Shown: piece by piece, positions 1-20,000 of the stretch
Position numbering within the stretch: position 1 is the first letter of the stretch
How the letters are laid out: each line of letters begins with the position of its first letter
Assembly: GCA_048213135.1 (NCBI GenBank)
Contig: PS015118.1
Coordinates: forward strand, 136,914-156,913
DNA: 20,000 bases
Direction: 5' to 3'
From: Reclinomonas americana ATCC 50394
Lineage: Eukaryota
Program-made: the position numbers and the translations under genes
Notes under the pieces: generated by a model
Database searches by the model: none
What the model saw: the letters and a program-made list of their open reading frames with translations, nothing else
What the model was told of the DNA's origin: nothing

Positions 1-2660
1 CTTTATGCTGGCGGACTTTGTGGCAACTAGTCCCTCAGAGCTGCAGGTGGCCATTGGCGGAGCGCCGTTGACGCCGTCGGGGAGGTGGAGCGTGTGTATT
101 GATGTGGACAGTGTTCACAGAAGAGCTGGAACTCACTCGAAACTCGGGACCACGGAGCTTGTCGTCGGTGTGTGTGGGGGGTTGTCGGTACTGTGTGCGC
201 GTGTATGTTCTTGAGTGGTGATTGATTGGATTCCGCTGTTCCATCAGTTGGTGTTGACTCCTTCTCACCACGAACCCTGTTGGCCACCGACTCTTCTGCC
301 GCCCTGATTCTGAGCGGATACAGTCTTCAACCTGGAGCAAATGTGCGCTCTGTGTTCCTGGTTCCCTTGCAGTCATCCACCGCCGTTGGAGCCTGTTCGG
401 CATCGCCAGTTGCCAGTCGGCTTTCATGCTCACTGTCTGCGAGTGCCTCTACCGCCGATACGCAACTGGTAATCGTTGTTCCTTCTGGTGGTTTGCCAGC
501 AACTGTGTATCAGGTGTGAACATGATTGTTGGTGATTGTGCACACATAACCTGGCCTCATCAATGACTCGCAGATTTGTGTGGACTACACACTCAATTCG
601 CCTGGAACACTGATTCCCATTGTCGGCACACCACTGCTGTATGCCGGTCGCGTCGACACTCTGATCACCACGGCTGTCGCGGCATTGGATGCGACAGCGG
701 CTGTGGAGCTGCACGGTTTGTGTATGTTTGTGTATGCGATGGACACACTGTTTGACAAGACGATCTTCTCACCGTGTCTCTGCGTTAAGGAATCGGCCTG
801 TCACCGCTGTCCATCCGGCGTGTGGTATTCGATCCCACCGGTGCCTGCGACACAACTGCAAGCACATTTGTTGTCGTTCCCGGTTCCTCGGTGATCGTAC
901 CCGATCCCTCCGTCATTGACGGCAGCGCAATCAAGGTGCCGCTCGGCTCTGACGGCAACCGCGGGCTTGCGCCAGGCGTGTATGCCGTGTGCGTGGAGTG
1001 GACGGCGGCACCCATTGGTCGCCTCGTCCGCGTGGGTCCGGGCGACGGCACTCAGTCGGTTCACACGGGTAAGTTGTACGAGACGACGAGTTCAGTTGCT
1101 GCTATTGTATTCCACTGACGCGCACGTCTGCCTTCCACAGCCATTGCGACCACCATGCAGCCGCTCACCCTACTCCCGAACACTCCGCAGTCCACACTGA
1201 CGCTTTTCGGCGTGGCGCTGGACATGGCGCTGAGTGTGTTGTCGGTGGAGTTGCAACTCGGCTACGCCTGTCGGCCGGCAGGGACCGGTGTGATCGTGCA
1301 ACCGACGACGGTGACAACGACAATCGACAAGACGCAACTGCGGATGTTGTTGGCCAACGGATTGCCGCCGGGCCAGTGGGTTATTTGTGTCAACCTGCGA
1401 GGCAGACCTGTTGCTGCTGGGTCACCGCTCATCAAGTGGCCAGTGGCCGACGACGGGAACGAAGTCCTCGTGGCGCAGACAGTGTCTGTGACGCCGACTG
1501 CCGTACTGCGCCAGGACACCACATCGCGAGTGACTGTGATAGGTGTCGGACTGCGCGCCGCTGTCAGTGTGCGCAGTGTTCGTCTGGTGCCTGGCATGCT
1601 GTGCGCGCCGTTCACGGCTGACACTGTGGAGGCCACCTTGGCGCCGCGTGCCGCCGGTACTGTGGATGATGCCAGTCGGATTGTGGCATTCGTAGGTTCC
1701 TTGCCGCGCGACACGTACACGGTGTGTGTCGACGTGACTGCCAACGTCATGATCTCCTATGCATCGTTTGCCACAATCTCTGTTGGTTTGTCTGGTATCA
1801 TTGCTGTGCTTGCAAGCCGCTGTCGGTTCTCATGGTTGTGTCCGTCGCCTTTGTGTTTTTCATTGCAGCCTCGACCACGCGACTGGAACCTCAAGCAATT
1901 GCTCTATACGCTCCGCCTCCCACCGTGACTGTCTTTGGTGCCAATCTCGCGCCAGGACCTCTGCTGCGACGCATTCGTCTGCAGCGGGAGGCTCTGTCGT
2001 GTACTGCCTTGGCCACGTCATCTGCGGTGGACAGTGGCTCAGCGGTGTGGCAAGATGGCGACCTTGCTGGCTTGGTGCAGGTCTCAGCGGATGGATCTCA
2101 GCTGTTTATCCGAGCCAGCCGATCCATCGACGCCGGCCGGTATGTGATGTGTTTCGACGCACTGGCCGGCGATCCGTCGGGGGCATTCGTGTCAGTCTCC
2201 TCAGATGCCATTTTTGTCGGTGAGGCACATTGGTGGTGATGGTGTGCCACTACTATGTCTCTCACGTTTGTCATGAACCAATCACTTTTTTCCCCGTGCG
2301 CAGCACGCATCTTTGGCTTCACGCCAGTGACGCTACCCGCCGCGGTGGAGACTACATCGCTCACGCTGTCTGGACTCGGGCTGCTACCTGTGGCTTCGAT
2401 TCGTGCCATTCGATTGGAGCCTCTGGCAACCGACGGTATATCGTCGTGCTCCACCAGCTCTGATCCGCCACGCACCGGCACTGTCGCCGTGGCAGTCACG
2501 GCCGACGTTTCGGCGGCGACCAATGTCGCGCACGAGACGGTGTTCTCTGGCTTTGTCCTCAGCCGCTTTGTTCGGCAATACGTGGTGTGTGTCGACATGC
2601 GCGCGATTCCACAGATCGACAGCTTTGCCACCATTCCAGGCGCCGTGCCGATTACTGTTG
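1..2660 (+). CDS. Exons 1-7: tandem roughly 110-aa IPT/TIG-like beta-sandwich repeats (at least 7, first one partial)
   Basis: Exons <1-167, 248-513, 574-715, 790-1068, 1141-1785, 1869-2219, 2304-2660, all joined in phase. Recurring pattern P-x-x-L...L-x-L-x-G-x-x-L...V-R-x-V-x-L...C...L-x-P-G-x-Y-x-V-C-V-D (GRWSVCIDV, TVYQICVDY, GVYAVCVEW, GQWVICVNL, DTYTVCVDV, GRYVMCFDA, RQYVVCVDM). The fold assignment is inference. Confidence 0.8.
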
Positions 2661-5600
2661 GTGGGTCGTGTGGATGCTGCTGCATCTGGTCAGTGTGATT
2701 CTGTCTCATCATGTGGTGGTGCATCCGCAGAATCGAGTATCCGACAGCAGATATCTGTGGGCGAGGTGATTCAGCGTCCACAGAATGTCACCCTCACCAT
2801 TCAGCTCGTGTCCGGCACGAATTCCGTTCGACACGCGTTGAGTGAAGTGGAGGCCCGAGTGGCGACCGACCACTTGCAGGTGTTGGTCAACGGAGCTCTC
2901 TGGTCGTCGACGGTCCCTAGTCCGTGCCCACAACCCACCACCTTCACGGAGAAAGTGCTGTGCGTGGTCACAGGTCTATTGCCGAACACCAATTATACGT
3001 TTTCGGTGGGACTCGCCAGCAACTTGGACTTTTCCGTGTCCACTGTTATTGTCAGCTGCGTCTTGCATGTGCTGTGCATGTCGCGGCGACCTTTAATCAC
3101 TTACTGTTCTTGCACTTTCTTTGTGTGCTGCAGGCAAGACGCTGCTTGTGCACTCGGCTTCGATGCGTTATGGTGGCAAACCGTCGTTCACGACGGCACC
3201 TGTGTTGCGTGCTGTTGTTATGCGTGCTGTGATTTCTGCTTTGCACTGAACGCTGTGGATGTTCAGCATCGTATCCGCGAGTGGTGCACCGGATCCTATA
3301 GAAGGGTGAGTGAGAGGGAGATGGAGAGGGAGACAGCGAGAGGGAGAAGGGGAGGAAGAGGGAGGGGAGAGGAAGAGGGAGAGGAAGAGAGAAGAGACAA
3401 GGAGAGGGAGAGGAAGAGAGCAGGGGAAGTGGGAGAGGCAGAGGGAGAGGGAGGGAGAGGGAGAGGGAGAGGGAGAGGGAAAGGGAGAGGGAGAGGGAGA
3501 GGGAGAGGGAGAGAAGAGGGTGAGAGAGAGAAGAGCGTGAGTGAGAGGGGAAGGGGATGGAAGGAGAGGGAGAGGGAGAGGGAAAGGGAAAGGGAGAGGG
3601 AGAGAGGTGGGGGCAAAGGGAGAGCGTGTGTAAAGTAAGAGAAAGATGACTGAGGACACGAGGAAAGAGAGGAGGGAAAAGAGAGGGGGAAGGGTAACTG
3701 AGGGAATGCAAACAGCGAGAGTGAGAGAGGAGGAGAGATATTGAGTATGTAGTGACGCGAAAGGGAGAGGAAGCGTGAGGGCGTATGGTGGTGTCGAGAG
3801 AAAAAAAGAGAGAGATGGGAAAGCAAGAGAGTTGGAGATTGTGAAAGGTCAAATTGATTGTGACTGAGTACTACTGCAGTAAATGCAGAGGGTACGTGAT
3901 TGTAGTGGGATGAGCGATGGAGTGACAGCGGGTGTGCATGTTTAAATGAAATGCTGCTCTTTGAAAGCTGCTTATGAGTGAGTGAGTGAGTGAGTGAGTG
4001 AGTGAGGAAGAGTGCAGTGAGTGAGGAAGAGGGCAGTGAGTGAGTGAGTGAGTGAGTGCAGTGAGTGTGTGAGTGAGTGAGTGAGTGAGTGCAGTGAGTG
4101 AGTGAGTGAGTGAGTGAGTGAGAAAGTGAGTGAGTGAGTGAGTGAGTGAGAAAGTGAGTGATTGTATTTGTGACAGTGCAGCGATGTGAGAGTGCGTACA
4201 TTTTGCGAGCTCACTTTGCGCCTGTGGCAGACCGAATCCACGCTTTGAGGTCGTGCAGAAGAAGGCCAGTGGTTTAACTCGAATTATCGACTGGGATCCA
4301 TCTACGTCGCCCTGCTTATGGTGAGTACAAACACATCACCTTGATGTGTAACTTGAAAATATCAGGCCCCTCTGATGCACCACTCTTGTAGGACGTCTGC
4401 TGCACCTGTTCTGTGCACTCTGGCTGGTCTCGAAGCGGCAACTGGATACTACGATTTCTATGTGCGCACGGTCACCGACGCGAATGCCGGTGACTTGATC
4501 TTGTCGCGGGAGCCCATCGTCACTGGTGGGCGAGAATGGAAAATGTCTTGTGCTTGGTGTCGTATATCTTTCCCCATTTACTCAATTCTTTTTTCTTGCC
4601 GCATTGCAGCATTCCATGATTTGGACCTCACCATCATCATGCGTTTCGTATTTGACTTGCGACTTGCGTATCTGCTTGTGCTGGCGGCTCACTCATGAGG
4701 TGTGTACAGAGGGAGCTGTGGTGGCAATCAATAGCCCGATCGCTGTGCATGCTACGCTGGTGGATCCAGATCGTAATCGTGCTCTTGTCGACGTCACAAG
4801 CACTGTCTTCAACTGGGGCTGTACGGTCGACGGTGTCGATTGCGGCAAGGTAGTGGTGACCACGGAGAGATCCGAATGGCTGTACATCTTGGACGGGTTT
4901 TCGCGGCCTGGACGGTGACTCTCACTCTGTGTGCATGTTTGAATGCTTGCAGCAAGTTATTCACCTGTGTTCTCCGAAAAGGTACATTTTTTCATGCAAC
5001 GCCATTCGTGGTGCGCGAAGTAAACAGGCCTCGTCCGACGTCGTGGTCACTGGTGACTCCACGACTATTTTCCGTGTGGTGAGTCCTCCGCTTCCATTAT
5101 CGGCAGGCGATTATTTCTGAAGCCTTCGATTGCTAAACGTCTTTTTNNNNNNNNNNNNNNNNNNNNNNNNNNNNNNNNNNNNNNNNNNNNNNNNNNNNNN
5201 NNNNNNNNNNNNNNNNNNNNNNNNNNNNNNNNNNNNNNNNNNNNNNNNNNNNNNNNNNNNNNNNNNNNNNNNNNNNNNNNNNNNNNNNNNNNNNNNNNNN
5301 NNNNNNNNNNNNNNNNNNNNNNNNNNNNNNNNNNNNCTTCAAGGGAACCAACCTGGAAGGTCCACATCGATGAATTCGCTCATGGTGAATGTAAACGCCG
5401 TCGAGCGAGCTACGCCGCTCAAAGGTGTCACCTCCAGAGTACCGACAGTCGGCAAGTCGTTGATGTTGAGCGTGACGGAAGGCACAGCTACAGAGATTGC
5501 AGGCAATCAAAGTCAGTCGCAGTCAATCATCCTGATGTGCCGAATGTGCTTTCAAATAAGACGCAACATATTGACGAATGCGACGCCGGAGTCGGCAGTG

Positions 5601-8600
5601 TCCACAACTCGAAGACATACTGCAGTCCTCCAGTGAGCGTACCACCAGTGATGCGCACAGTTGGCGGTTGTCCGGGTGGACCAGGTAGGAACACAAATGC
5701 CGGTTCTCCGAGAAGCAGCTCGGTCGTGCTCCCTGTATGAGAACAGTGAGGCCAAGAACGGAAAGGGGCGAGCAGCAGACACGCATGCGCATCAAGCGCG
5801 CACGCCATACTTGCACCGCCTCTTCTCCCTTCTGTTTCTTCCTCACCACTCTCCTCTCTAGTCGCTTCATCGCACTGTCTCTCTTCCCTGTCCTCTTTGT
5901 GTGACTCACCCTTGGCATACGCGCGCCACGAATACCGGTTGGCAGCAAGCACACCAGGGTCATCAACAACAGTGGCGCTAACGGATATACTGCGCAGAGG
6001 ATTGAGCCGTGCCACAGCTGCTCCAACGGCAACGGGTGACTCGGAAACCTGCGTNNNNNNNNNNNNNNNNNNNNNNNNNNNNNNNNNNNNNNNNNNNNNN
6101 NNNNNNNNNNNNNNNNNNNNNNNNNNNNNNNNNNNNNNNNNNNNNNNNNNNNNNNNNNNNNNNNNNNNNNNNNNNNNNNNNNNNNNNNNNNNNNNNNNNN
6201 NNNNNNNNNNNNNNNNNNNNNNNNNNNNNNNNNNNNNNNNNNNNNNNNNNNNNNNNNNNNNNNNNNNNNNNNNNNNNNNNNNNNNNNNNNNNNNNNNNNN
6301 NNNNNNNNNNNNNNNNNNNNNNNNNNNNNNNNNNNNNNNNNNNNNNNNNNNNNNNNNNNNNNNNNNNNNNNNNNNNNNNNNNNNNNNNNNNNNNNNNNNN
6401 NNNNNNNNNNNNNNNNNNNNNNNNNNNNNNNNNNNNNNNNNNNNNNNNNNNNNNNNNNNNNNNNNNNNNNNNNNNNNNNNNNNNNNNNNNNNNNNNNNNN
6501 NNNNNNTGGCAATCCTTGGTGTATGTTGCTCGTCACTGACAATTGACTATATAGTGACGTATCTACCGTTCTACGTCCACCCACTCTATGGTTACAAGGT
6601 TTGTGTGTGTCATCCATCCATATTGGAGAGGAGTGTACCCTCCGCACTGACTCTCACTGGGATGATTCAGGTGTATATGGCCTCCAGCACAATTCCGATC
6701 ATCAGGAGTGTAGTATTCCCACTGGCCGGCAACGCCGGTGGCTCCAACCTACTCACTGTTGCGTTTGTTTCTCTCGTCGCCTCATAACACCCTATTCGGC
6801 TCACAGTGTTTCTCGCGCAGGTTGGAGTGAGTGCTCGCGACACATATGGCGGTGCAGTGGATGTAACCACAACGATTGCTGTCGCGGGGCCCAGCGGCGG
6901 CGCAAGCCTGGCTGCCGATGCATTCTTCCTCCGGTCGAGCATCGCCAAAGCGTTGCTGCTGGATCCTGGGGATTTCAACGATGCCGAACTGGGTTCATCG
7001 ATGGCATTGTTACATGCGGGTGTCACGACGCTGAGCACCGGTGGAGCCAGCAATCTTGCCGCCGGTATGGAAAAGGAAGAGGAAGGAAAGGGAAAGGAAA
7101 GGGAGAGGGAGGGGAAGGAGGAGAAGGAGAGAGAGAGGGAGAGGGAGAGGGAGCGGCAGAGAGGAAGAGAGAGAGGGAGAGGGAGAGGGAAAGGGAACGG
7201 AGAACGGTGGGGGAGAGAAAGAGCGAGAGGGAGAGGGAGAGGGAGAGGGAGAGGGAGAGGGAGGGGGAGGGGGAGGGGGAGGGAAGAGGGAAGAGGGAAG
7301 AGGGAGAGGAAAAGGGAAAGGAGAGGGAGAGGGAGAGAGAGAGAGAGNNNNNNNNNNNNNNNNNNNNNNNNNNNNNNNNNNNNNNNNNNNNNNNNNNNNN
7401 NNNNNNNNNNNNNNNNNNNNNNNNNNNNNNNNNNNNNNNNNNNNNNNNNNNNNNNNNNNNNNNNNNNNNNNNNNNNNNNNNNNNNNNNNNNNNNNNNNNN
7501 NNNNNNNNNNNNNNNNNNNNNNNNNNNNNNNNNNNNNNNNNNNNNNNNNNNNNNNNNNNNNNNNNNNNNNNNNNNNNNNNNNNNNNNNNNNNNNNNNNNN
7601 NNNNNNNNNNNNNNNNNNNNNNNNNNNNNNNNNNNNNNNNNNNNNNNNNNNNNNNNNNNNNNNNNNNNNNNNNNNNNNNNNNNNNNNNNNNNNNNNNNNN
7701 NNNNNNNNNNNNNNNNNNNNNNNNNNNNNNNNNNNNNNNNNNNNNNNNNNNNNNNNNNNNNNNNNNNNNNNNNNNNNNNNNNNNNNNNNNNNNNNNNNNN
7801 NNNNNNNNNNNNNNNNNNNNNNNNNNNNNNNNNNNNNNNNNNNNNNNNNNNNNNNNNNNNNNNNNNNNNNNNNNNNNNNNNNNNNNNNNNNNNNNNNNNN
7901 NNNNNNNNNNNNNNNNNNNNNNNNNNNNNNNNNNNNNNNNNNNNNNNNNNNNNNNNNNNNNNNNNNNNNNNNNNNNNNNNNNNNNNNNNNNNNNNNNNNN
8001 NNNNNNNNNNNNNNNNNNNNNNNNNNNNNNNNNNNNNNNNNNNNNNNNNNCCATCTCTCACGTACCAACTGAGGTCGGAGTGTCTCCAGCAGATCTGAGT
8101 CCTGTCGTGCAATCTCGAAAGCAAACGCTTCGCCATTGGAGGCATCGAGCGCCAGCGGCTGCCCGTAGGCATTCTGCAGCGTAACCCGCTGGATGGGGCT
8201 TCCCAGAACGGTGGTGTTGCGCGGCGCTGGATAGGGACTCAGATCTGACGAAACAAGTCAGACGAGTCGAAGTGGCAGACGGGAATAAACGACGGCGACG
8301 AAACTCGACGCCACAGTAGCGGACACGAAAATCGGTGTCGTGGCAAACAGGCGAGCGGGAATGGTGGGAGGAAACTGGTACTGTGTCAGCAGCGAGTTCG
8401 CATTCGAGTCCACCGTGCCGCCAATCTGTGGCACCACGCCTGTTGACCCGTTGGTCGACATGTTGCTGAAGGCGATGAACTGGGTGCGGAGGAGAGTGAG
8501 AATAATCACATACATCCATTCATATCCGACGGGAGAGAGAGAGAGAGAGAGAGAAACAGAGAATAAAGTGAGTGCGCAGAGAGGCCCATCCATATACTCT

Positions 8601-11600
8601 CTCTCTCTCTCTCTCCACTACTACGCACGCACCCACACACTCTTTTTCAGCAAAAAAACAGTCGCTCAGGTACTCCCTCAGATAAACATGCGGAGCGAGA
8701 CAGACATTCGCATGCGGGCTCAGAGAAAGAGAGGGACAGTCACAGACACACGGAAACATGGATTTGTTGTGAGACAAAAAACAGAACAAATACAGGCACA
8801 TTGTGAATGTACCACCATTGCCGGCTGCGGCGCAAAAGCAGCTCAGATAACTCATTCTCACATAGGACCGAAGGCAAGAACAAGAAAAAGGACACAGTGA
8901 AAGAAACTGACGCAAACCACACCGACAGTAATGATCGAATAACAAGAAGACACACTGCATCTCTCTTGCCCTTCTCCTTTCCCTATTTTTATCCTCCATC
9001 ATACCTGTACCCCCGGCACTGGTGTGCTTGCTGAAAAGTGCGCCGCCACCAATTGCATCGAGTTGCCGATGACCATGGTCGCCACTTCACCCGTGGCCTT
9101 GGTGTTGACAGATCGGAAGCCAACATCAGCCAGCGCTGAAACTCCGGCCGCCGCCAGCTGCTGGAATGCATGCGAGTCACTGCCTGCACTCGCAGATACA
9201 GCACTCAGCGTGTTGTCGATCATGGCGCTGAATGTCTGTGACATGGACCGTGCATCAGGGCCACNNNNNNNNNNNNNNNNNNNNAGAGTGTGCGCTGAGT
9301 GTGGATTGATCGACGTCTAATGTAATTGTGGTGCAGAGTGACTTGCTCGAGTACTTGGATAATTGCGGTGTGCGATCAACGTCTGCGACCGCATCATCGA
9401 CTTCATCTCCGACCGGAGAAACCACGCTCGTCTCGCTGAATAATTCTCGTTGCGTGTGCGCGTGTGTGTGTGTGTGTGTGTCTCGAATCGTGTGACACCT
9501 TTTGGCGACTTGCAAAGTCACTGTGGCGTGCGTAGATTGCGATCAATATGTCCCACGAAATACCACATTCAATTGTACGTCATGGTGTTGTTGGTGTGCT
9601 TCAGTGCAGCTGCATGTTCGTGTTACTGATATTCTCTCGATGCAGCCGTGGTCTCTCAGTTCAGCCGCTTGTGCGTCTACTGGAATGAGACGCAGTCGGC
9701 GTGGCGCTCTGACGGGTGCTCAACGTTGCGCACGATCTCATTGGGGGGTGTTCCCTCAGCCTGCATTGAATCACTCCTTCGGTGTAGGTATGCTCGAGTG
9801 GCGAGTGGAACGCGAGATGTGGTGTCGTTTGTGTGTCTCTGCAATCACATGACAGATTTCAGCGTGAATTGTGCGTAACCGAAGGAGGGAGGGAGTGAAG
9901 GGTGAAGGGAAGAGGAGAGAAGAGAAATGGGAGAGGGAGAAGAGAATTGGGAGACGGAAATGGAAGAGAGGAAGAGAGAGAGAGAAAGAGAGTAGAGATG
10001 AGGAAGAGGGAGGAACAAGGAGTGAATGAAGAGAGATGAAAGAGAGTAGAGAAGAGGAAGAAGGAGGAAAAAGGAGTGAATGTGGGAGTAGAGAAGGGGA
10101 AGAAAGAACGGAGAGAGAAGAGAGAGGGAAAAGGAGAGAGATGGATAGGATAAAAAGACAGAATAAACAAGAGGAGAGACGGGGAGAGGGAAGAGAAAGA
10201 TGAGAAAGAGGAAGAAGGAATAAGCGAAGCGAGAAAGAAAAGAGAGGAAGGAGAGGAAAAAGAGAAAGAGAAGAAGAAGAAGATCAAGAGTTTACAACAG
10301 CGGACCGAGAGAGAGGGAGAGGGGAAAGAGAGTGTGGCCTTCAGCCGGGGGGGTGATGAACAGTGCTCTGACTTGGTGTACTGATAACTTTGCGTTCCGT
10401 TTTGTTGCGGTGCAGTGCACGACATTTTCGACATTCACTTTACATTCGTATCGTTTCGTCGTTTGCATGACTGCCTTCGAGTGTTTTGTGGAGACTAACG
10501 TTGTGTGCGTAGTCCGGCCGACTTGCTGTCGCTGTTTACCGGACAACTCTTGCGGAGCTCGACCTTTGTGATTGTCGTCTGTGCGTAATGCGTGCGTGTG
10601 CCACGCACATCAACGAGATCCAGTGTGTCGCTGACTCCTCCCCGTCTCGTCGCAGTGATTCAAGTCATTTATCTGGTACAGCTATACATTGGCTACAAGC
10701 TCGACCAGGCGAGTGACAAGCAGCTCGTCCGTCATGTCAACATGTTGCGAATGCCGCTGAGGCGTGCCGTCTCGTATGGCGTGAAATTCGCCGGGTAAGC
10801 ACTGGCATTGCAGTTTCAGTTTGTTGAATGACCGTGACTCTTACTGTGAGGTACGCGTAGAGTATTCTCCACTGCCGATTTGCGAGAACGCGATCTGCAA
10901 CCGCATGATGCAGGTTCATTTGGATATTGATGTTTATTCCTGTGGAAGGTCGTAGTCAGGCTCACTTATAGAGTGCATGTAGACTCTCGGTTGGCATTGG
11001 CGAGGCATTTTATTGCTATCTCGCGGTTCCGACGTGCGTTTCAGTTGTGGTTTGACGTCATTTTGTTCATGCATCTCATCACGCGTGCGTCTGTACGCAG
11101 GTCTCGTTCATGCGGTGATTCGAGTCAACCGCAGTCGCGGATGGCTGAAACGGCGCATCGTGACGACGTGGACTGCCGTCGTCGGTATGTCTCAAGTCGT
11201 GAAAATCTCATCTGCCCAGTCTTGATGTTCACGTGATATCTGCTGTGCAGACAATCACTCGTGGATGTCGACGATTGTGTGTCCCAATGCCGATCGCTTC
11301 CGCAGAACGCAGCGCACGACGGTTTGATTTCGTACACCGTCGCTAGATTACCCCCGAATGTGTCCTCACACGATTCCATGTACAGACGCTTTGGTTCGCC
11401 GTCTGCTTGGCGCTGTACTGCAATGCGGTGTTTGCCGAGCAGGCGACGGTCACCGGTGCTGGGTCGGCTTTCTTGCGTGAGTTGCTGATTGGTGTTATAT
11501 CAGGTGCGAGAAGGGGTAAGGGGAAGGGGGAAGGGGGAAAGGAGGCAGGGGAAGGGGGGAACGGGAAAGGGGAAAGGGGAAAGGGGAAAGGGGAAAGGGG

Positions 11601-14600
11601 AGAGGGGAAAGGGAGGAAGGGCGAGAGTGGGGAGAGACCGGAGAGTGATTGGGAAGGAAGGGTACAGAGGAAAGGGAGGAGAGGGAGGAGGGAAGAATGG
11701 GAGATGACATGCGTATGTAGGAGAGCAAACAAGGATGGTGAATGTACACGGAGAGAGAAAGGAAGAGAAGGACACGAGGCAAGAAGGAAGAATGTGATGT
11801 CTATTGCGTGTGGGAGAATGACGAAGTAGCGGGATACTTTGAGAAGACGAATGAGGGAAACACTGAGGGCAAGAAGGAAGAATGAGAAAGGAGAACGTGA
11901 TACATAGTGGAAGATGAAGAGAAAGAATAGGAGGGGAGGCGGATGTCGGGGAGATGAGATGTGTGTGGGGGGAACGGAGAGTGATACTTGGGGAGGGAAA
12001 AGAAGGGAAAGACTGAAGGCAAGAAGGAAGCATGGGAAAGGAGAACGGAGAGGGAGAACAAGAGAAATAACGGGAGGGAAGAGGGAAGAATGGGAAAGGC
12101 AAATGGCGAAGGAGTGTGCAACACGGAGAGGGAGAACAAGAGAAATAACTTGAGGGTGGAAGAAAAAATGGGGAAAGGAAAATGGAGAGGGAGTGTGTTA
12201 CACGGAGAGGGAGAACAAGAGAAATAACGGGAAGGAAGAAGAAAAAATGGGGAAAGGAGAACGGAGAGAGAGAACGTGATACATAGAGGAAGATGACGAG
12301 AAAGAGTAGGAGGGGAGGCGAATGTCGGGGAGATGAGACGTGTGTGGGGGAACGGAGAGTGATACACGGAGAGGGAGAACAAGAGAACGGGAAGGAAGAA
12401 GAAAAAATGGGGAAAGGAAAATGAAGAGGAAGTGTGGAGAAGGAGAACCAGAGAAATGATGAGAGGGAAGGAGAAGGAATTGGATATCAACTGTGTGGAA
12501 GAACAAAGAGAGTGTAATAACAGGAGACGGATAGGACGAGAAATAGTGGAAGGGAAGGAGAAGGAATTGGATATCATCTGTGTGGGAGAACGGAGAGGGA
12601 GTGTAGTAACTGGAGACGGATAGGACGAGAAATAGTGGAAGAAGAACGGAGAGAGAGTGTAATAACTGGAGACGAAAAGGACGAGAAATAGTGGAGCGAG
12701 AGATAAGAAATGAGTGTGCGGGAGAACGGAAATGGATCGTAGTTTACAGTGGGGGCATCATACAAAGAGAGAGAGAGAGATGTGGCCGGGTATGAGTCTG
12801 ACGTGAGCTGTCCTGCAGGAGAATGAGAGTGAGTGAGAGCAAAAAGAGAAACAGCAGCAGTGTCATTGAAACTGTGTGCGCGTTGATGCAAGTGTCTCAC
12901 ATGATTGCCTACAGGAGTAATCATGGCGCCTGTGGTGTGGATCGTCTCGCAAATCTTCAAACGCACACCACGCTTGGTTCTGGAGATACCATCAAACGTG
13001 CACGAACTGAAGCGCACACCGGAGTCAGGGGAAGTGACGTCGATCGACATGCCGGCTGCTCATGACGTGTCCGACGTGGAGCGTGCAGAGTCTGATCGCA
13101 GCACTTCGTCTCGATCGGACTCGCCGACTCGCAAGGTAATGTCTGATGCATGTAGGCCAAGTTGCTGTGGATCCGCTGATGGTGACTGTGTGTGTGCGCG
13201 CGTTTGTGCAGAAACATCACGGTTTGCTTGCTGCTCCCCAGTTCCGGCATTTGTCACTGCCTCGGCCACTGCCGCCACCACCTGCAGCAGCAGCAGCAGC
13301 AACACCAACCACAGCAATGCGTGGTTCTCGGCTTGGTGGGCGTGGCGGTTCTGGCATGCACTGGCTCACGGCCATGTCTCTGCTGCGGAAGAACGATGTG
13401 TTTGGCGCGTTTTTGCATTACGCGCAGCATGGGAGGGAGAGTGCAGTTGCGTCGGAAGGGGGGGAGAGGAGGAGGGAGGGAAGGGAGAAGAGATGGAAAA
13501 TGAGGAGAATAGGTTGGAGGAAAGGATTGGGGAACAGGAAGGTTGATGGCTTGGGAATGAGGCAACCGATTGTTGACTGCTGATCATATTGTCCGCCAGG
13601 TCCCCATTGGATACTCGCTGGCTGCACTGCAGCGCGAGTTTTTCGAGTGGACACACAGCGCGGGGACGGGTGAAGGAACCTCACTGCAGGAGATGTCTGC
13701 CGATGAGTTCCAACGACAGTGGCTGGCGCAGTATGCTGCCGCCGCCACGGCTTCGGCGGCTGCCGGTGATCAGCTGGAGTCACGTGCTCGTCTGCTTGCG
13801 TTTGTGACTGACAGGCAGTTGAATGGCGATGTGAGTGCGCCGCCTTCGGTTGGAGGTGGACTTGCGTCTGTACGCATGAGTCGCACGGCTCTGACTAGCA
13901 GGTGAGTCGAAGAGAGGAGAAGGGGAAAGAAGGAAAAGGGAAGCGAGAGAAGGATGGAGAGGAGATGGGAAAGGAGAAGGGGAAAGAAGGGTAAGGGAAG
14001 ATAGAGGTAGAGAGAGACGGAGGAAGAAGAGAGAGAAAAAGTTGGGGAACGAGGGCAAAGAGTGGATGAAGGATTCGGCGAAGATAAAGGAGGAGAAGGG
14101 AAGAGAAGTGAGAAGAGAAGGCAGATAAAGTGAGAGAGGGGGGAAGGGAAAGTGAAGTGAATGAGAGACCAAAAGGAGGATAGAAAGGAGAAGGGACAGA
14201 AAGGAGAAGAGAATGGGGAGAGAAGTGGGGAAGAGAACAGAAGGGAGAAGAGAGGGGAGGGGGAATGAAGAGAATGAGAGACCAAAAGAGAGAAGAGAAC
14301 TGGACGAAGGTGAAGGAGGAGAAGGGAAGAAGAGGGATAAGAAGAAAAGGGAAGGGAAGAGATGAGGGGGGAAGGGAAAGTGAAGAGAATGAGAGGCCAT
14401 CAAGAGAAAAGAAAGCAGAAGAGACAGAAGGAGAAGAGGCTGGGGAGAAGCGTGGAGAAGAAAAGGGAACAGAGAGAAGAACGGAGAGGAGAAGAGAAGA
14501 AAGAGAGAAATGACAAAAAAAGAGATGAGAGAGAAGGGAAGAAGATGGATGAGAAGAAAAGGGAAGGGATGAGAAGAGAGAAAAGAGGGGAGGGAAAGTG

Positions 14601-17600
14601 AAGAGAATGAGAGACCACAGAGAAGAGAAAAAGGAGAAGAGAAAGAAAGGAGAAGAGAATGGGGAGAGGAGTGGAGAAGGAAGATTGGAGAAAAGAGGAT
14701 AACAGAGCGACAGAATGAGGAGAAGAGAGTAAAAGGAGAAGTTAACGAAGATGCGAAGAGAACGGAGAAGAAAGAGAGAGAAACGGAGCCAAAAAGAGAA
14801 GAGAGCGAGGAGAAAAGTGAGAATGGATAACAGGAAGAAAGGGAAGAGTGAGAAAGGGGAAGAGAAGGGAGCGAGGAGAAGAGAGTAAAAGGGAAAGTAA
14901 AGGAAGAGGAGGTGAAAACGGAGAAGAAAGAGAGAGAGAAACGGAGACAAAAGGAGAGGCGAACGATGAGACGACAGACTGATGATAACAGACCGAGAAG
15001 AGGAGTGAGAAAGGAGAAGAGGAAGTGGAGAGGAGAAACACAGAGGATAAAAGTTAAGAAAGGGAGGATAGAAGAACGAGGAAAAGAGAGAGTGGAGAGG
15101 AGAACGAAAATGAATATGTGAGTGAGATGGAGGTACAATTCATTGCGGAGGGAAGAGTGTTTTTTTGGCGTACATCTCATGCGTCTCTCTCTTTCCTCAC
15201 CCACCCAGTGCCGGCAGCCCCATGTCACCGAGCCCATGGCTCTCCATCATGCCACTCTCGCCCCACTATGTCGCCGAATTCCAACAAAATGACAATGACG
15301 ACGGCGACTCGACAGCAATGAAGGTGCGTCCGCTTGCGTTCAATCTTCCATGGCACAGTCAGCCCGCTAACACACTTGCGCTCAGGCGCCGCTGGTGGTA
15401 CGAAATGTGGACCTCCATCGCGTGCGAGTGCTTGCTTTGCTGCGACAACAGGACGTGATTGGAGCCTGGTTGTACTACATGACGAACATTCGACTGCCGA
15501 CTGTGTCGGTAGGTCGCTCCGTGAGCATTGTTAGTCAGCAGATTGTTCTGGTGTTGCTAACTTGCGGTATATCAGGTGACGCAGAGTGCCGGTTCATTTT
15601 CACTGGTGGCGTTGCTCCGCGAGTTCATGTCGTGGCGGCGCTCAGCCGTCGCACAGGCTGACGGTGATGCGGCCGCTGCGACCGTCTCCGAAGAAGACTT
15701 TGTGCGCTTGTGGCGTGAGCAGCAACAGCGACAAGTAGACGATGATGACAGAGCTTCAACATTGGCCTCGTTCTTGACTGCGAATCGCATCGTGGATGAC
15801 GTGAGCGGTGTGATGAGGTAAGTAACTGCAGTTCGTCATTCTTGCATGCTGTCGTTGGCTAACAAATTCAATGCACAGAGGGGAAACCGGCGCATCGTCA
15901 GTGTCTTCAAGGTCAGTTGTGCCAACTGTTGTCGTTGCTGTTCTATCCATGTGATTACTGACCTCTTATTTCCAGCGCTCTTGCCCTCTCGTCGCCGCCT
16001 GTTCATGTTGCGCTTCACTCTTGTATCAATGCACTCACCAAGCGGATTCACTCATCGCTGTTTTGTAATGTGCCTGCAGCGCGCCGAACCGTGGCCATTG
16101 GCGCGTGCTGGTGGACCGCAACCGGGTGGTGGTGTCGTTGTTCATGTGGATGGCTCTCACTTGGCATTGGAGCCTGGTTTCTCGACTCATGTCGATGAGA
16201 ATGGGTGAGTGTGGAGAGGAGATGGAGAACAAGAAGGAGAAGGGGAAGGAGAAGGAGGACAAGAAGGAGAAGGAGAAGGAGAAGGAGGAGAAAGGAGGGT
16301 AAAAGGAGAAGGAACGAGGTGGAAAAGAAAGAATTTGCGGGGAGGAGGAGGAAAGGAAGATGGAGTAGAAGAGGAGAAAGAGAACGAGGATGCTAAAGGA
16401 TTAAGGTGAGAAATGAGTGCAAGGAGACGAAGAGAAGAAAGGAGGCTGAGGAGGCGTAGGAGGACGAGGGAGGAGGAAGAGAAAGCAAGAGGGAACAGAA
16501 GAACATGTAAAGGGCAGGGAAAGAAGATACCGATGAAAATGAAAGGAAGCAGGAGAAGAAAAAGGAAGACGAGGAAGAGGATGGAGAGGGGAGAAAGAGA
16601 ACAGGAAGAAGGAAGCAGAAGAACAAGTAAAGGCAGGAGAAATAGAAGACGAAGGTGCTGGGAACAAGAATGTGGAAGGAGAAGAAAGGCAAGAAGAAAA
16701 AAGGCAAGAAGAAGAAGAAGAAGAAGGATTGAGAAGACAGAAGCGGAAGAGCAGATGCGTGAGAGGAGAAAACGAGAAAGGCATGTAGGAAAAGCAAGGA
16801 GGAGAAAGAAAGAATATGGAAACAGATTAGCGACGAAGAGCAGAAGAAGACGAGCGAGGCGAAAAGGAAGGGAAGAAGAAATAGGGGAGGGGTTANNNNN
16901 NNNNNNNNNNNNNNNGAAGGAAGGGTAAGGACAAGGGAGTAGAAGAAGGAAATGAAGAAGAGGAAAGGAAGGAGGAGCGGTCAAGGGGGAAGAAAAAAAG
17001 GAAAAGATACGAGGATGAAGACGAACGCAAATGTGAAAGCGGATGAGGAAGAGGAGAAAGAAAGGCAAGAAGGAGATGAAGAAAACCGAGAATAATGAAA
17101 CGGAAGAGCAGATATGTGGGAAGAGAAGACGAGAAAGGCGAAGAAGCAAGGAGAAGAAAGAAAGAATAAGGAAGCAGATTAGCAATGAAGAGCAGAAGAA
17201 GACGAGAGAGACGAAAAGGAAAGGAAGAGGGGAGGGGTTAGAAGGAAGGGTAAGGACAAGGGAGTAGAGGAAGGAATTGAAGAAGAGGAAAGGAAGGAGG
17301 AGCGAGAAGGGGGAANNNNNNNNNNNNNNNNNNNNGAAAAAGGAAAAACAAGGGTGAACACGAAAGCAAATGTGAAAGCGGATGAGAAAGAGGGGGGAAG
17401 AAGAAAAACTGAGAAGAAGGAAGCGGAAGAGCAGATATGTGGGAAGAGAATGCGAGACAAGGCGTGGAAGTAAAGTTAGGAGGAGAAAGAAAGAAGAACG
17501 ATGAAGGTAGGAAAAGTAAATGAAGGGAAGAAGCAACAGAAGAAGAAAGACGAGGAAGAGGATGAGAAGGAATGGGTAAGGACACGGAAGAGAAGGACGA

Positions 17601-18278
17601 TGAAAGAGGAAGAAAAACGAAGGAGAAAACGAAGAAAATGAAGGACGATGAAGAAGAAGAAGAGAATGACAAGATGGAAAACCAGGTGGTGGTAGAGGAG
17701 GAGACAAGGTAGCAATGGCAACCTGGAGAAAAGTACGCATGTCTATGTTGATGTGACCTATTCACCTTTGGTATGCACGCAGCCGCAACAGCCAAGCGTC
17801 TGATTCGTCTCAAAGGCAAGACTTTTTGTGCTTGTTATTTATTAGGTTGTGTCTCACGTTATTTTGCCCATGCAGTTCACACGCTGGCGACACCCCACTG
17901 CGTTCGCCGCACTCGACAAGTGCACAAGATGTCTCCGCCATACCGTCTGCTTCGGTAATTGGTCGTTGTTGCAGTCGCCATGCTTTGTGCTTGCATCTCA
18001 AGCGACACTTGTGTCCAGAGCACGGCAATGTGGCAGCGAGTGCGCACACTGTTAGCCGACCAACAGCGAACGCGCAATATCGTGCCGATGCTGGAGCCGG
18101 TGGAGAATGAGAACAGACATGTGAGAGCGTGTGAAAATGCGGAAGGAGGCGGGAAACAAGGGCGTCACTGAGTGTTTTTTTGTCGCGCAGGTCGGTGAAG
18201 TGAGTTATCCCGTTCAGATCAGCGCGCTGGGCAACTCTGGGCGTCGGAGGCGGCAGGTTAAGGGGACATTGCCAGTGG
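1..18278 (+). CDS. Giant multi-exon polycystin-1/REJ-like membrane protein gene (partial; about 49 exons, about 2,400 aa in window; six exons lie in two reversed blocks)
   Basis: Hand-spliced exon chain with GT-AG sites and consistent phases. Motifs appear in the order expected for the PKD1 family: REJ, GAIN/GPS (CxYW...W...GC...CxCNHM|TDF), TM1, DxHxWxS...FxRxQRxT, TM2, TM3, KxxLP. No start or stop codon for the gene is in the window. Confidence 0.88.
2731..4525 (+). CDS. Exons 8-12: two fibronectin-type-III-like modules
   Basis: Exons 2731-3050, 3139-3203 (both with tentative boundaries), 3267-3305, 4231-4320, 4392-4525. Peptides SPC...VLCVVTGLLPNTNYTFSV and SPC...VLCTLAGLEAATGYYDFYV match the FN3 strand E-F signature (GLxPxTxYxFxV). 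Confidence 0.65.
3306..3830 (+). repeat. Intronic polypurine tract with (GAGAGG)n runs
   Basis: Mostly G/A, with hexamer runs at about 3440-3512 and 3563-3605. Confidence 0.9.
3975..4161 (+). repeat. (GAGT)n tetranucleotide microsatellite, imperfect
   Basis: Direct reading of gagtgagtgagt..., with occasional gcagt and gaaa interruptions. Confidence 0.95.
4610..5078 (+). CDS. Exons 13-15: N-terminal part of REJ domain
   Basis: Exons 4610-4642, 4710-4914, 4982-5078. LVDPD...VFNWGC and PGRYIFSC...GARSKQASSDVVV resemble the REJ motifs DPD...F-x-W-x-C and G-x-Y-x-F...RS..AS..V.V. Confidence 0.75.
5353..6048 (-). CDS. Exons 16-18 of the same gene (REJ core) in a reversed, gap-bounded block
   Basis: Minus-strand exons 6048-5910 (VSESPV...ARLNPLRSISV...RYSWRAYAK), 5732-5568 (...GGTLTGGLQYVFELW...) and 5487-5353 (VTLNINDLPTVGTLEVTPLSGVARSTAFTFTMSEFIDVDLP). 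The last matches the REJ hallmark N-x-P-P-x-G-G...V-x-P-x-x-G-x-A-x-x-T-x-F...D-x-D-x-P. GT-AG sites are on the minus strand, and phases match the plus-strand exons ending at 5078 (phase 0) and starting at 6555 (phase 1). Confidence 0.85.
6555..7064 (+). CDS. Exons 19-21: C-terminal REJ region and start of helical GAIN-A-like region
   Basis: Exons 6555-6598 (VTYLPFYVHPLYGYK), 6671-6757, 6821-7064 (VGVSARDTYGGA, matching the REJ V-x-V-x-x-x-D-x-x-G-A motif). Confidence 0.8.
7069..7347 (+). repeat. Intronic (GAGAGG)n/(GA)n polypurine tract running into a gap
   Basis: Direct reading. Confidence 0.92.
8066..9235 (-). CDS. Exons 22-24 of the same gene (GAIN region) in a second reversed, gap-bounded block
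   Basis: Minus-strand exons 9235-9005 (TFSAMIDNTLSAVS...SMQLVAAHFS...GVQ), 8479-8305 (FIAFSNM...QYQFPP...) and 8244-8066 (LSPYPAPRNTTVLGSPIQRVTLQNAYGQPLAL...RPQL). The final donor GTACGT is phase 0, matching the plus-strand acceptor at 9336. Confidence 0.8.
9337..9870 (+). CDS. Exons 25-28: end of GAIN domain with GPS autoproteolysis motif
   Basis: Exons 9337-9448, 9518-9574, 9646-9724, 9788-9870. They encode CVYWNETQSAWRSDGCST-YARV...SFVCLCNHM|TDFSV, with 4 Cys, 2 Trp and the H-M|T triad. The predicted scissile bond is between the codons at 9851/9852. Confidence 0.92.
9881..10331 (+). repeat. Intronic GA-rich low-complexity tract
   Basis: Direct reading; lies between the donor at 9871 and the acceptor at 10415. 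Confidence 0.85.
10416..13135 (+). CDS. Exons 29-37: TM1, first cytoplasmic loop, PKD1 signature, TM2 and TM3
   Basis: Exons 10416-10452, 10513-10580, 10656-10794, 10861-10913, 10983-11033, 11101-11184, 11251-11321, 11386-11503, 12915-13135. TM1 is FVIVVLIQVIYLVQLYIGY followed by KLD. Then DNHSWMSTIVCPNADRFRRTQRTT, TM2 LWFAVCLALYCNAVF, and TM3 ELLIGVISGVIMAPVVWIVSQIFKR. Confidence 0.85.
11508..12730 (+). repeat. Purine-rich intron with (GGGGAAA)n and nested direct repeats
   Basis: A roughly 96-bp unit occurs at 11891-11987 and 12270-12365. ACGGAGAGGGAGAACAAGAGAA occurs four times (about 12045, 12123, 12202, 12366). GGACGAGAAATAGTGGA occurs three times in 12530-12695. Confidence 0.85.
13212..15817 (+). 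CDS. Exons 38-42: cytoplasmic loop containing two copies of an unrecognised roughly 115-aa helical domain
   Basis: Exons 13212-13445, 13600-13901, 15209-15323, 15386-15508, 15576-15817. Phases are consistent and the internal peptide repeat is visible by eye. Confidence 0.78.
13910..15110 (+). repeat. Purine-rich intron with degenerate direct repeats
   Basis: A GGGAAAGTGAAGAGAATGAGAGACCA-like unit recurs at about 14146, 14261, 14374 and 14592. Confidence 0.8.
15879..18278 (+). CDS. Exons 43-49: Ser/Pro-rich remainder of cytoplasmic loop, ending RRRRQVKGTLPV before the expected TM4
   Basis: Exons 15879-15911, 15976-16006, 16080-16204, 17783-17815, 17876-17954, 18019-18120, 18191-18278. This was the only stop-free phase chain I found. 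A basic K-x-x-L-P precedes TM4 in PKD1-family proteins. Confidence 0.65.
16210..17710 (+). repeat. Purine-rich intron with a degenerate tandem duplication of roughly 330-360 bp (about 2.5 copies)
   Basis: CGGAAGAGCAGAT recurs at about 16744, 17101 and 17424. The downstream CAGATTAGC...GAAGAGCAGAAGAAGACGAG...GGGGTTA-GAAGGAAGGGTAAGGACAAGGGAGTAGA is shared by copies 1 and 2. Confidence 0.85.
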
Positions 18279-20000
18279 GTGAGTGGAGAAGGGGAAGGGG
18301 GTTGGGAGGGATGGAGAGGGATGGGGAGAAGGGGATAAGTGGAAAGGGAGGGGGAAGGGAAGGGGAGAAGAGAAGACGAGACCGGGAGGGAAGAAGGGAA
18401 AGGAAAATGATTGGATGAACCTGCAAGGTGAGGAGAAAGGTGGGAGGAACAAGCGGGGGAGGGAGGTCTGGAAAAGGGAAGTGGAAGTGAAGGAAGAATA
18501 GGGAAAAAGTGGAACAAAACTCAAAGGGAGTNNNNNNNNNNNNNNNNNNNNNNNNNNNNNNNNNNNNNNNNNNNNNNNNNNNNNNNNNNNNNNNNNNNNN
18601 NNNNNNNNNNNNNNNNNNNNNNNNNNNNNNNNNNNNNNNNNNNNNNNNNNNNNNNNNNNNNNNNNNNNNNNNNNNNNNNNNNNNNNNNNNNNNNNNNNNN
18701 NNNNNNNNNNNNNNNNNNNNNNNNNNNNNNNNNNNNNNNNNNNNNNNNNNNNNNNNNNNNNNNNNNNNNNNNNNNNNNNNNNNNNNNNNNNNNNNNNNNN
18801 NNNNNNNNNNNNNNNNNNNNNNNNNNNNNNNNNNNNNNNNNNNNNNNNNNNNNNNNNNNNNNNNNNNNNNNNNNNNNNNNNNNNNNNNNNNNNNNNNNNN
18901 NNNNNNNNNNNNNNNNNNNNNNNNNNNNNNNNNNNNNNNNNNNNNNNNNNNNNNNNNNNNNNNNNNNNNNNNNNNNNNNNNNNNNNNNNNNNNNNNNNNN
19001 NNNNNNNNNNNNNNNNNNNNNNNNNNNNNNNNNNNNNNNNNNNNNNNNNNNNNNNNNNNNNNNNNNNNNNNNNNNNNNNNNNNNNNNNNNNNNNNNNNNN
19101 NNNNNNNNNNNNNNNNNNNNNNNNNNNNNNNNNNNNNNNNNNNNNNNNNNNNNNNNNNNNNNNNNNNNNNNNNNNNNNNNNNNNNNNNNNNNNNNNNNNN
19201 NNNNNNNNNNNNNNNNNNNNNNNNNNNNNNNNNNNNNNNNNNNNNNNNNNNNNNNNNNNNNNNNNNNNNNNNNNNNNNNNNNNNNNNNNNNNNNNNNNNN
19301 NNNNNNNNNNNNNNNNNNNNNNNNNNNNNNNNNNNNNNNNNNNNNNNNNNNNNNNNNNNNNNNNNNNNNNNNNNNNNNNNNGGGAGAAAGACAGTGGGGG
19401 ATGTGAGGGCAAAAGTGGAAGAGGAAATGCACGGTGGACGAAGGTGGGAATGGAAAATGGGAAGATGGAGGAGGAGGGAGAGTGGACAGTGCGTGTGAGA
19501 GCAGAAATGACAGCACTGTGTAATGGCAGTGATTGACGTTGATGTGGAGGGGAAAAGGAACAGCAAAGGTGGAAGAGCTTGAGAGAGGCAAGAGGAATGT
19601 TGAAAGAGGAGAGTATCAGTGTTTGAAGGCACTGTATGAAGGCAGTGAGTGATCTTGATGTTGATATGGAGAGGGAAACGGGGAACCTGGATGAGCTTGA
19701 GAGGCAAGAGAAATGTGGAAAGAGGAGAGGGCAGAGGATTAGGGGAAAGGGATAAAAAAGGGAAGGATGCAGAGAAAGACGCAGAGGAAATGACAATGGA
19801 GATGCAGATGAATAGACGAGATACGAGAAATGTAGAAGGCGAAGAGGGAAGAAGAGTAAGGGGGAAGGGAATGGAATGGGAGTGTCGAAGAAAAAGTGAC
19901 GCGGGATGGGGTGGGTGGGAAAGGACAGTGGAGATGCAGATAGAAAGACGAGAGGCAAGAGGAAAGTAAAAGGGAAAGAGGGAACAAGATTAAGGCGGAA
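18279..20000 (+). repeat. Purine-rich intronic sequence interrupted by an 850-N gap
   Basis: Donor GTGAGT at 18279, followed by GA-rich sequence. No convincing exon in 19382-20000. Confidence 0.7.

Follow-up and report, generated by a model that had tools for sequence, protein, structure and literature searches.

A Putative Polycystin-1/REJ-Family Receptor Gene with an IPT/TIG-like Stalk on a Reclinomonas americana Scaffold

Layout of the Locus

The DNA studied here, called the window below, is a 20,000-nucleotide (nt) stretch of a draft eukaryotic scaffold from Reclinomonas americana ATCC 50394 (assembly GCA_048213135.1, contig PS015118.1, positions 136,914 to 156,913 of the forward strand), and it probably holds the middle of one multi-exon gene for a large, type-I-like membrane receptor of the PKD1/REJ family. 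Read along the predicted protein, the window contains seven tandem Ig-like repeats, a REJ match, a GPS exon followed directly by the first of three transmembrane (TM) segments, and a long hydrophilic region of tandem modules (Table 1). The combination of REJ, GPS directly before TM1, two further TM segments, and a long hydrophilic stretch points to the polycystin-1/REJ family and to no other.

Seven runs of N interrupt the window. Between them, strand-balanced, GC-rich stretches are interleaved with long ones of strong purine bias on the plus strand; the former are exons and the latter introns. Automatic gene models mis-framed several of the short exons and were replaced with two exon chains checked by hand, in which all 19 curated introns have GT-AG borders. 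The N-terminal chain joins eight exons (2-3050) into 842 residues that stay open over seven of seven GT-AG introns of 60-84 nt. The second joins 13 exons, from the GPS to 15817, into 665 residues with no stop, and its 12 introns, all GT-AG, keep the frame, which argues for a single gene. The window could instead be divided among several neighboring genes: one (1-3050) for an Ig-repeat protein that is secreted or anchored, one for a REJ-GPS protein with three TM segments, and one (from 13212 on) for a cytosolic repeat protein of its own. The sequence is broken by four large N-gaps, exons can be joined in more than one way between 3050 and 5146, and no family ties the tail modules to polycystins. 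However, the exons that lead from TM3 into the tail are in frame, without a stop and with GT-AG introns; all parts lie on a single strand once two reversed blocks are flipped; and the gene models, in which start exons were not searched for, place no terminal, stop-containing exon between the parts. We regard such a division as unlikely and continue with the single gene.

Table 1. Features of the window by position (window coordinates; ORF, open reading frame; HMM, hidden Markov model).
Feature	Position	Strand	Remarks
Seven tandem Ig-like (IPT/TIG-like) repeats	2-2660	+	~95-115 residues each; found with the outside-protein HMM
Repeat exons	2-167, 248-513, 574-715, 790-1068, 1141-1785, 1869-2219, 2304-2660	+
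ORFs with repeat-HMM matches	2-211, 226-516, 789-1115, 1119-1925, 1670-2236, 2240-2695	+	2-211, C-terminal half only; 1119-1925, two units
First FN3-like exon (weak)	2731-3050	+	Pfam fn3, E = 0.013, 16.1 bits, cut-off 25
Provisional exons, possible second FN3-like domain	3139-3203, 4231-4320, 4392-4525	+
Purine-rich array (AGGGAG)n	3303-3624		Tandem Repeats Finder
Cys-containing exons before the first gap	4610-5078	+	open frames; boundaries uncertain
Runs of N	5147-5336, 6055-6506, 7348-8050, 9265-9284, 16896-16915, 17316-17335, 18532-19381
Reversed block 1, three REJ-region exons	5337-6054	-	exons ~5921-6054, 5568-5728, 5349-5487; enclosed by N-runs 5147-5336 and 6055-6506
Exons between REJ and GAIN	6507-7064	+	~6509-6606, 6688-6775, 6821-7064; open frames, exon-like composition
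Purine-rich array (GGAGAG)n	7085-7347		Tandem Repeats Finder
Reversed block 2	8051-9264	-	exons ~9005-9262, 8281-8479, 8062-8226; open frames; enclosed by N-runs 7348-8050 and 9265-9284
GPS exon	9646-9874	+	Pfam PF01825
13-exon chain, first part	9646-9874, 10513-10580, 10656-10794, 10861-10913, 11101-11184, 11251-11321, 11386-11503	+
13-exon chain, second part	12915-13135, 13212-13445, 13600-13901, 15209-15323, 15386-15508, 15576-15817	+
Membrane segment 1	10562-10696	+	hydropathy peak 2.24; over junction of exons 10513-10580/10656-10794, in phase, GT-AG
TM1-TM2 loop exons	10861-10913, 11101-11184, 11251-11321	+	loop of 102 residues
Membrane segment 2	11389-11433	+	peak 1.57; exon 11386-11503
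Membrane segment 3	11482-12958	+	peak 2.39; over junction of exons 11386-11503/12915-13135, in phase
Tandem units of 79-158 nt	12045-12695, 14132-15068		Tandem Repeats Finder
Long hydrophilic region of tandem modules	13212-18278	+
Module 1	13212-13445, 13600-13901	+	two exons
Linker exon	15209-15323	+
Module 2	15386-15508, 15576-15817	+	two exons
Provisional further module copies	16080-16204, 17975-18120, 18191-18278	+	exons, in frame
Purine-rich long-intron stretches	3303-3624, 7085-7347, 9880-10340, 11504-12800, 13902-15150, 16205-17700, 18279-20000

REJ, GPS and the Membrane Segments

Among 35 exon translations scanned against Pfam, REJ and GPS were the sole significant matches, and their E-values survive correction for that number of translations. 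REJ (PF02010; E = 1.9e-8; 33.8 bits against a curated cut-off of 25) was matched at 5351-5485 on the minus strand over profile positions 305-346 of 452, and it is one exon alone of this module that reaches significance. GPS (PF01825; E = 1.3e-9; 38.8 bits against a cut-off of 22.5) was matched at 9648-9875 on the plus strand. With C-x2-W-x6-W-x3-G-C at 9672-9719 and C-L-C-N-H-M-T-D-F at 9834-9860, the motif retains four Cys, two Trp, and the His and Thr of the cleavage site. Conserved Cys, Trp, and cleavage-site residues are GPS/GAIN features listed in PMC3321182, and because that paper shows the GPS to be part of the GAIN domain, we infer a GAIN domain here. The scissile bond is predicted from the motif to lie between Met and Thr (codons 9846-9854). 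In the curated chain, H-M-T occupies residues 67-69 and TM1 starts at residue 93, a gap of 23 residues.

Hydropathy was calculated on the curated chain by the Kyte-Doolittle method with a 19-residue window. Three peaks follow the GPS exon (Table 1), and values stay at or below 1.27 throughout the approximately 365 curated residues after the third segment. The exons whose junction the third segment spans are separated by an intron of 1,411 nt. The original prediction, made from the letters and reading frames of the window, had named REJ, GAIN/GPS, three TM segments, and then a very long loop, spread over short exons and two reversed blocks. Most of this is borne out, including the REJ module, the three segments, the short exons, the minus-strand coding of both blocks, and a long stretch after TM3 that is hydrophilic and made of tandem modules. 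For GAIN/GPS, the GPS part stands, while nothing beyond the GPS motif was recovered for GAIN. The prediction had also proposed a search for PLAT and the polycystin channel; in the exon-by-exon scans, neither PLAT nor PKD_channel gave a match.

The loop between TM1 and TM2 bears on PLAT in particular. The 35 exon translations, among them three of the four exons that encode the loop, gave no PLAT match at E ≤ 1, and neither did 51 plus-strand ORFs. The search of 9285-18280 was made exon by exon and is insensitive to domains split over exons; the loop is split over four, and a truncated PLAT remnant is compatible with the scan. A full PLAT with its flanks is longer than the 102 residues available. 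Thus, PLAT is not detected and a complete copy does not fit the loop, while a remnant is possible. Loop exon 11101-11184, which has no profile match, may resemble the last PLAT strands, a likeness drawn by eye, and could be such a remnant. The stretch before TM2 (11256-11315) may likewise resemble the juxtamembrane motif of animal PKD1, and the distal loop may also be similar to animal PKD1; PDB sequence searches with the pre-TM2 and TM2 exons returned no match at E ≤ 10.

Both blocks that code on the minus strand are bounded by runs of N, and for this reason 5337-6054 and 8051-9264 are most likely small contigs that were wrongly oriented during scaffolding. Windows of 60 nt that are pyrimidine-rich on the plus strand occur in block 1 (2 of 22) and block 2 (2 of 39) and nowhere else (0 of 518), which fits a flipped polarity of purine-rich introns in the two blocks. 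The exons of block 2, placed by their position just before the GPS exon, are presumed to encode the body of the GAIN domain; none matched a Pfam family, and their minus-strand reading ends in strands that lead into the plus-strand GPS exon. Alternatively, the inversions could be real and the locus a decayed or rearranged pseudogene copy. The two inverted blocks themselves, the insertion and Met at -1 in the GPS, and the lack of a close homologue in protein libraries would fit decay. However, the curated exons all read open and keep their GT-AG sites, and both inversions match gap-bounded contigs exactly, as is typical of a scaffolding error. A pseudogene is consequently improbable, and we retain the reading of an intact gene with two mis-oriented contigs. 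As a separate observation at one contig joint, the last exon of block 2 (8051-8110, minus strand) ends in S-D-L-L-E-x-L, and the same peptide recurs at 9337-9360 on the plus strand, in the next exon across the 20-N gap. This recurrence may reflect either a short duplication or an artefact of overlap.

Several points weigh against an intact receptor gene of the polycystin-1/REJ family. No PLAT, PKD_channel, or 7TM family was found at E ≤ 1 in the 51 plus-strand ORFs of 9285-18280, and no polycystin chain came up when the PDB was searched by sequence with the GPS and TM2 exons. The gene model is ambiguous between 3050 and 5146, where, as at the four large N-gaps, continuity is presumed, and the gene structure is a prediction from genomic sequence. 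Within GAIN, statistical support is limited to the GPS part. At the cleavage site, position -1 is Met and not the usual Leu. The Pfam GPS match also falls into two stretches, with the H-M-T half approximately 40 residues after the first (9720-9833 lies between), and the motif therefore seems to contain an insert of some 30 residues. As the halves stand about 30 residues wider apart than usual, cleavage may not occur; taken together, the Met and the insertion make cleavage uncertain.

A GPS directly before the first membrane segment would also suit an adhesion-type G-protein-coupled receptor (GPCR), in which GAIN/GPS is followed by a seven-helix bundle. However, a REJ module is present, only three hydrophobic segments are found before more than 350 hydrophilic residues, and none of the 51 ORFs matches a 7tm family. 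With no secretin-like seven-helix bundle found after the GPS, we rejected the adhesion GPCRs (class B2), and this is the least probable of the alternatives, to the point of being hardly credible.

The Stalk Repeats and the Tail Modules

The stalk was delimited with an HMM built solely from 15 repeats of outside proteins (P0001-P0005), with Z set to 1000. Searched against all six-frame ORFs of the window, it found seven units, on the plus strand only, with domain E-values from 1.2e-4 to 7e-14; repeat 1 is truncated by the start of the window. To collect the outside proteins, exon 1143-1784 (214 residues) was searched exhaustively with HMMER against 1.84 billion representative proteins. Six relatives were found at E ≤ 0.001, with 31-36% identity, all of them short fragments of tandem repeats; the best were P0001 (2.6e-19), P0002 (2.2e-15), and P0003 (2.8e-12). 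The sixth, a bacterial-type Ig-repeat protein (P0006, E = 6.7e-4), was kept out of the HMM because its match is probably due to chance or to a very remote relationship. The relatives of the stalk are thus five fragmentary proteins among 1.84 billion representatives. No protein in that library has 50% or more identity to the 214-residue exon, so the library lacks the protein encoded by the window itself. A word-based search among longer proteins gave no match for the stalk exon, taken as 216 residues, and none for P0001, and a profile of a nine-sequence alignment (A1), searched against near-length proteins, matched only P0004, already a member of A1. P0001-P0005 look like ORF calls on unannotated eukaryotic contigs, with some ends entering intron-like sequence, and P0004 sits on a 2,766-bp ENA contig.

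The original prediction had called these repeats TIG-like and counted seven or more. The HMM built from outside proteins reproduces a count of seven, and the label finds indirect evidence. None of six window repeat exons matches Pfam TIG (PF01833) at E ≤ 1. However, relative P0003 does (E = 8.4e-6; 26.1 bits against a cut-off of 20.9), and P0001 does so weakly (E = 0.0042). In a language-model search of the ESM Atlas with a repeat exon, 23 of 30 matches fall in the TIG set; the first named cluster (score 0.93, 190 shared features) carries TIG on 41% of its members, and the nearest TIG-bearing clusters are haptophyte, euglenozoan, and chlorophyte records. An AlphaFold model of the double-repeat exon 1143-1784 is all-beta, with approximately 5-6 strands per repeat, at a low mean predicted local distance difference test (pLDDT) score of 55.4. 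Foldseek found no PDB match to this low-confidence model at E ≤ 0.001, and its weak top rows, none of them significant, were tandem Ig domains (titin and a single-chain variable fragment). On this indirect evidence, TIG-like is a reasonable label for the seven repeats.

Two FN3-like domains had been predicted after the repeats, and these are not established. The first candidate stays below the Pfam threshold (Table 1), and a single-sequence AlphaFold model of its exon was uninformative (pLDDT 39.5). The second would be split over three provisional exons, the first two of which are separated by a purine-rich intron of 1,027 nt. Its junctions are phase-compatible GT-AG candidates chosen by eye, so the model is uncertain, and the two larger pieces (4232-4318 and 4393-4524) have no Pfam match. 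The Cys-containing exons that follow (4610-5078) gave chance-level Pfam matches only at E ≤ 1 and are probably the start of the REJ region. The exons between REJ and GAIN (6507-7064) matched no Pfam family.

On the other side of the membrane segments, the hydrophilic stretch runs for at least 400 residues after TM3. In a two-sequence BLASTP comparison, module 1 (13356-13901) and module 2 (15404-15817) are 33% identical over 78 residues (E = 1e-11). Each module is interrupted by an intron at the corresponding position (13445/13600, 15508/15576, and, in the provisional copies, 18120/18191), which points to tandem duplication of a two-exon unit. The module matched no Pfam family in the 51 plus-strand ORFs, and the ESM Atlas gave no lead for it, with a best score of 0.87 and unnamed clusters. 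The last exon ends at a GTGAGT donor and the window ends in an intron; the gene therefore runs on past the window, where TM4-11 and a channel part would lie.

How many membrane segments the protein has affects what kind of REJ-family protein it is. It may be one with three segments and a long cytoplasmic C-terminal tail, rather than an 11-TM protein with a channel-like part, a possibility that we take seriously while thinking it the less probable form. The splice donor at the end of the last exon, and the further coding sequence it implies, speak against it, as does the pre-TM2 stretch, which may resemble the juxtamembrane motif of the 11-TM PKD1 proteins. In its favor, no hydrophobic segment was found in the approximately 365 curated residues after TM3 or, by eye, in the provisional exons up to 18278, and the modules are still repeating at the end of the window. 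Sea-urchin REJ proteins span 1-11 TM segments (PMC1934368). Whichever form applies, the reading of a polycystin-1/REJ-family receptor is the one carried forward here.

Known Relatives, Possible Mechanism and Intron Content

In humans, polycystin-1 is the principal protein of polycystic kidney disease. There is still debate on how signaling is coupled to its ectodomain, to cleavage at the GPS, and to the PLAT loop. The window gene shares with the animal polycystin-1 family (PKD1, PKD1L1-3, and PKDREJ) and with the sea-urchin SpREJ proteins an extracellular stalk, then REJ, then a GPS just before TM1. In contrast to the animal family, its stalk has TIG-like repeats in place of the LRR, WSC, C-lectin, and PKD modules. 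The short TM1-TM2 loop gave no PLAT match, and TM3 is followed by a long region of tandem modules that lie outside known families. With IPT/TIG-repeat surface proteins (PF01833), such as fibrocystin (PKHD1), it shares a long stalk of tandem repeats, in the window putatively of Ig fold, whereas its own repeats miss that profile at E ≤ 1.

Published cases place these differences in a wider range. For example, sea-urchin SpREJ1-10 have variable ectodomains, from 1 to 11 TM segments, and PLAT in five of ten (PMC1934368). In the brown alga Ectocarpus, the male-gamete protein Esi0130_0068 carries REJ and GPS in 1,427 residues with 6-7 predicted TM segments (PMC4700764). Like the window gene, it is a non-animal membrane protein with REJ and GPS in a long N-terminal ectodomain, and its predicted TM segments number fewer than 11; in contrast, no TIG stalk is reported for it, a comparison made by description and not by sequence. 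GAIN domains outside animals are recorded in Tetrahymena (more than 8), Dictyostelium, and Monosiga (PMC3321182). These share with the window a non-animal GPS with conserved Cys, Trp, and cleavage-site residues, whereas the window GPS has Met at -1 and an inserted stretch, and the likeness is at the level of the motif and not of the full architecture. The family as published thus already spans changes in the ectodomain, proteins that lack PLAT, and lower TM counts.

What is particular to the window gene is the TIG-like stalk with its very rare relatives, the short TM1-TM2 loop, and a tandem cytoplasmic module without a family. Our literature search found no paper on an architecture of TIG, REJ, and GPS, which is weak evidence that none has been published. 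The original prediction of a lineage-specific polycystin-1 relative thus stands in part. Animal PKD1 does have another stalk and other cytoplasmic modules, while the novelty is more modest than proposed, as REJ with GPS outside animals and REJ proteins without PLAT are already in print.

By analogy with the family, the protein would work as a self-cleaving mechano- or adhesion sensor. The REJ-GAIN unit would fold and the chain could then cut itself between the Met and Thr of H-M-T, with the stalk remaining attached non-covalently. Pulling on the stalk, or binding of a ligand, might expose a short tethered peptide and alter the state of the membrane part. The latter would use its cytoplasmic modules for signaling, or else a partner or a built-in channel if TM4-11 exist downstream. 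More tentatively, and with the balance of probability against it, the window may show, for the first time, a separate protist branch of polycystin-like receptors that has hardly been sampled. In such a branch, an IPT/TIG stalk would replace the animal adhesion modules, PLAT would be lost or reduced to a stub, and a new tandem cytoplasmic module (approximately 110-130 residues, with an intron at the same position in every copy) would have taken over the coupling to the cell interior. A relative with another stalk, a minimal TM1-TM2 loop, and another cytoplasmic output would reveal which parts of the REJ-GAIN-TM1-3 core are indispensable, and the gene would add a data point on the age of that core outside animals. 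In draft assemblies, short exons, low-complexity introns, and mis-oriented contigs break up giant receptors, which are therefore easily missing from protein sets.

An Rfam scan of the window returned no families. Every long intron is strongly purine-rich on the coding strand, and short introns (60-190 nt) have no such bias. The long introns contain short (AGGGAG/GGAGAG/AAGGGGA)n arrays together with longer tandem units of 54-158 nt. A (TGAG)n microsatellite of approximately 47 copies (3975-4161) falls within the 1,027-nt intron that separates provisional exon 3139-3203 from provisional exon 4231-4320.

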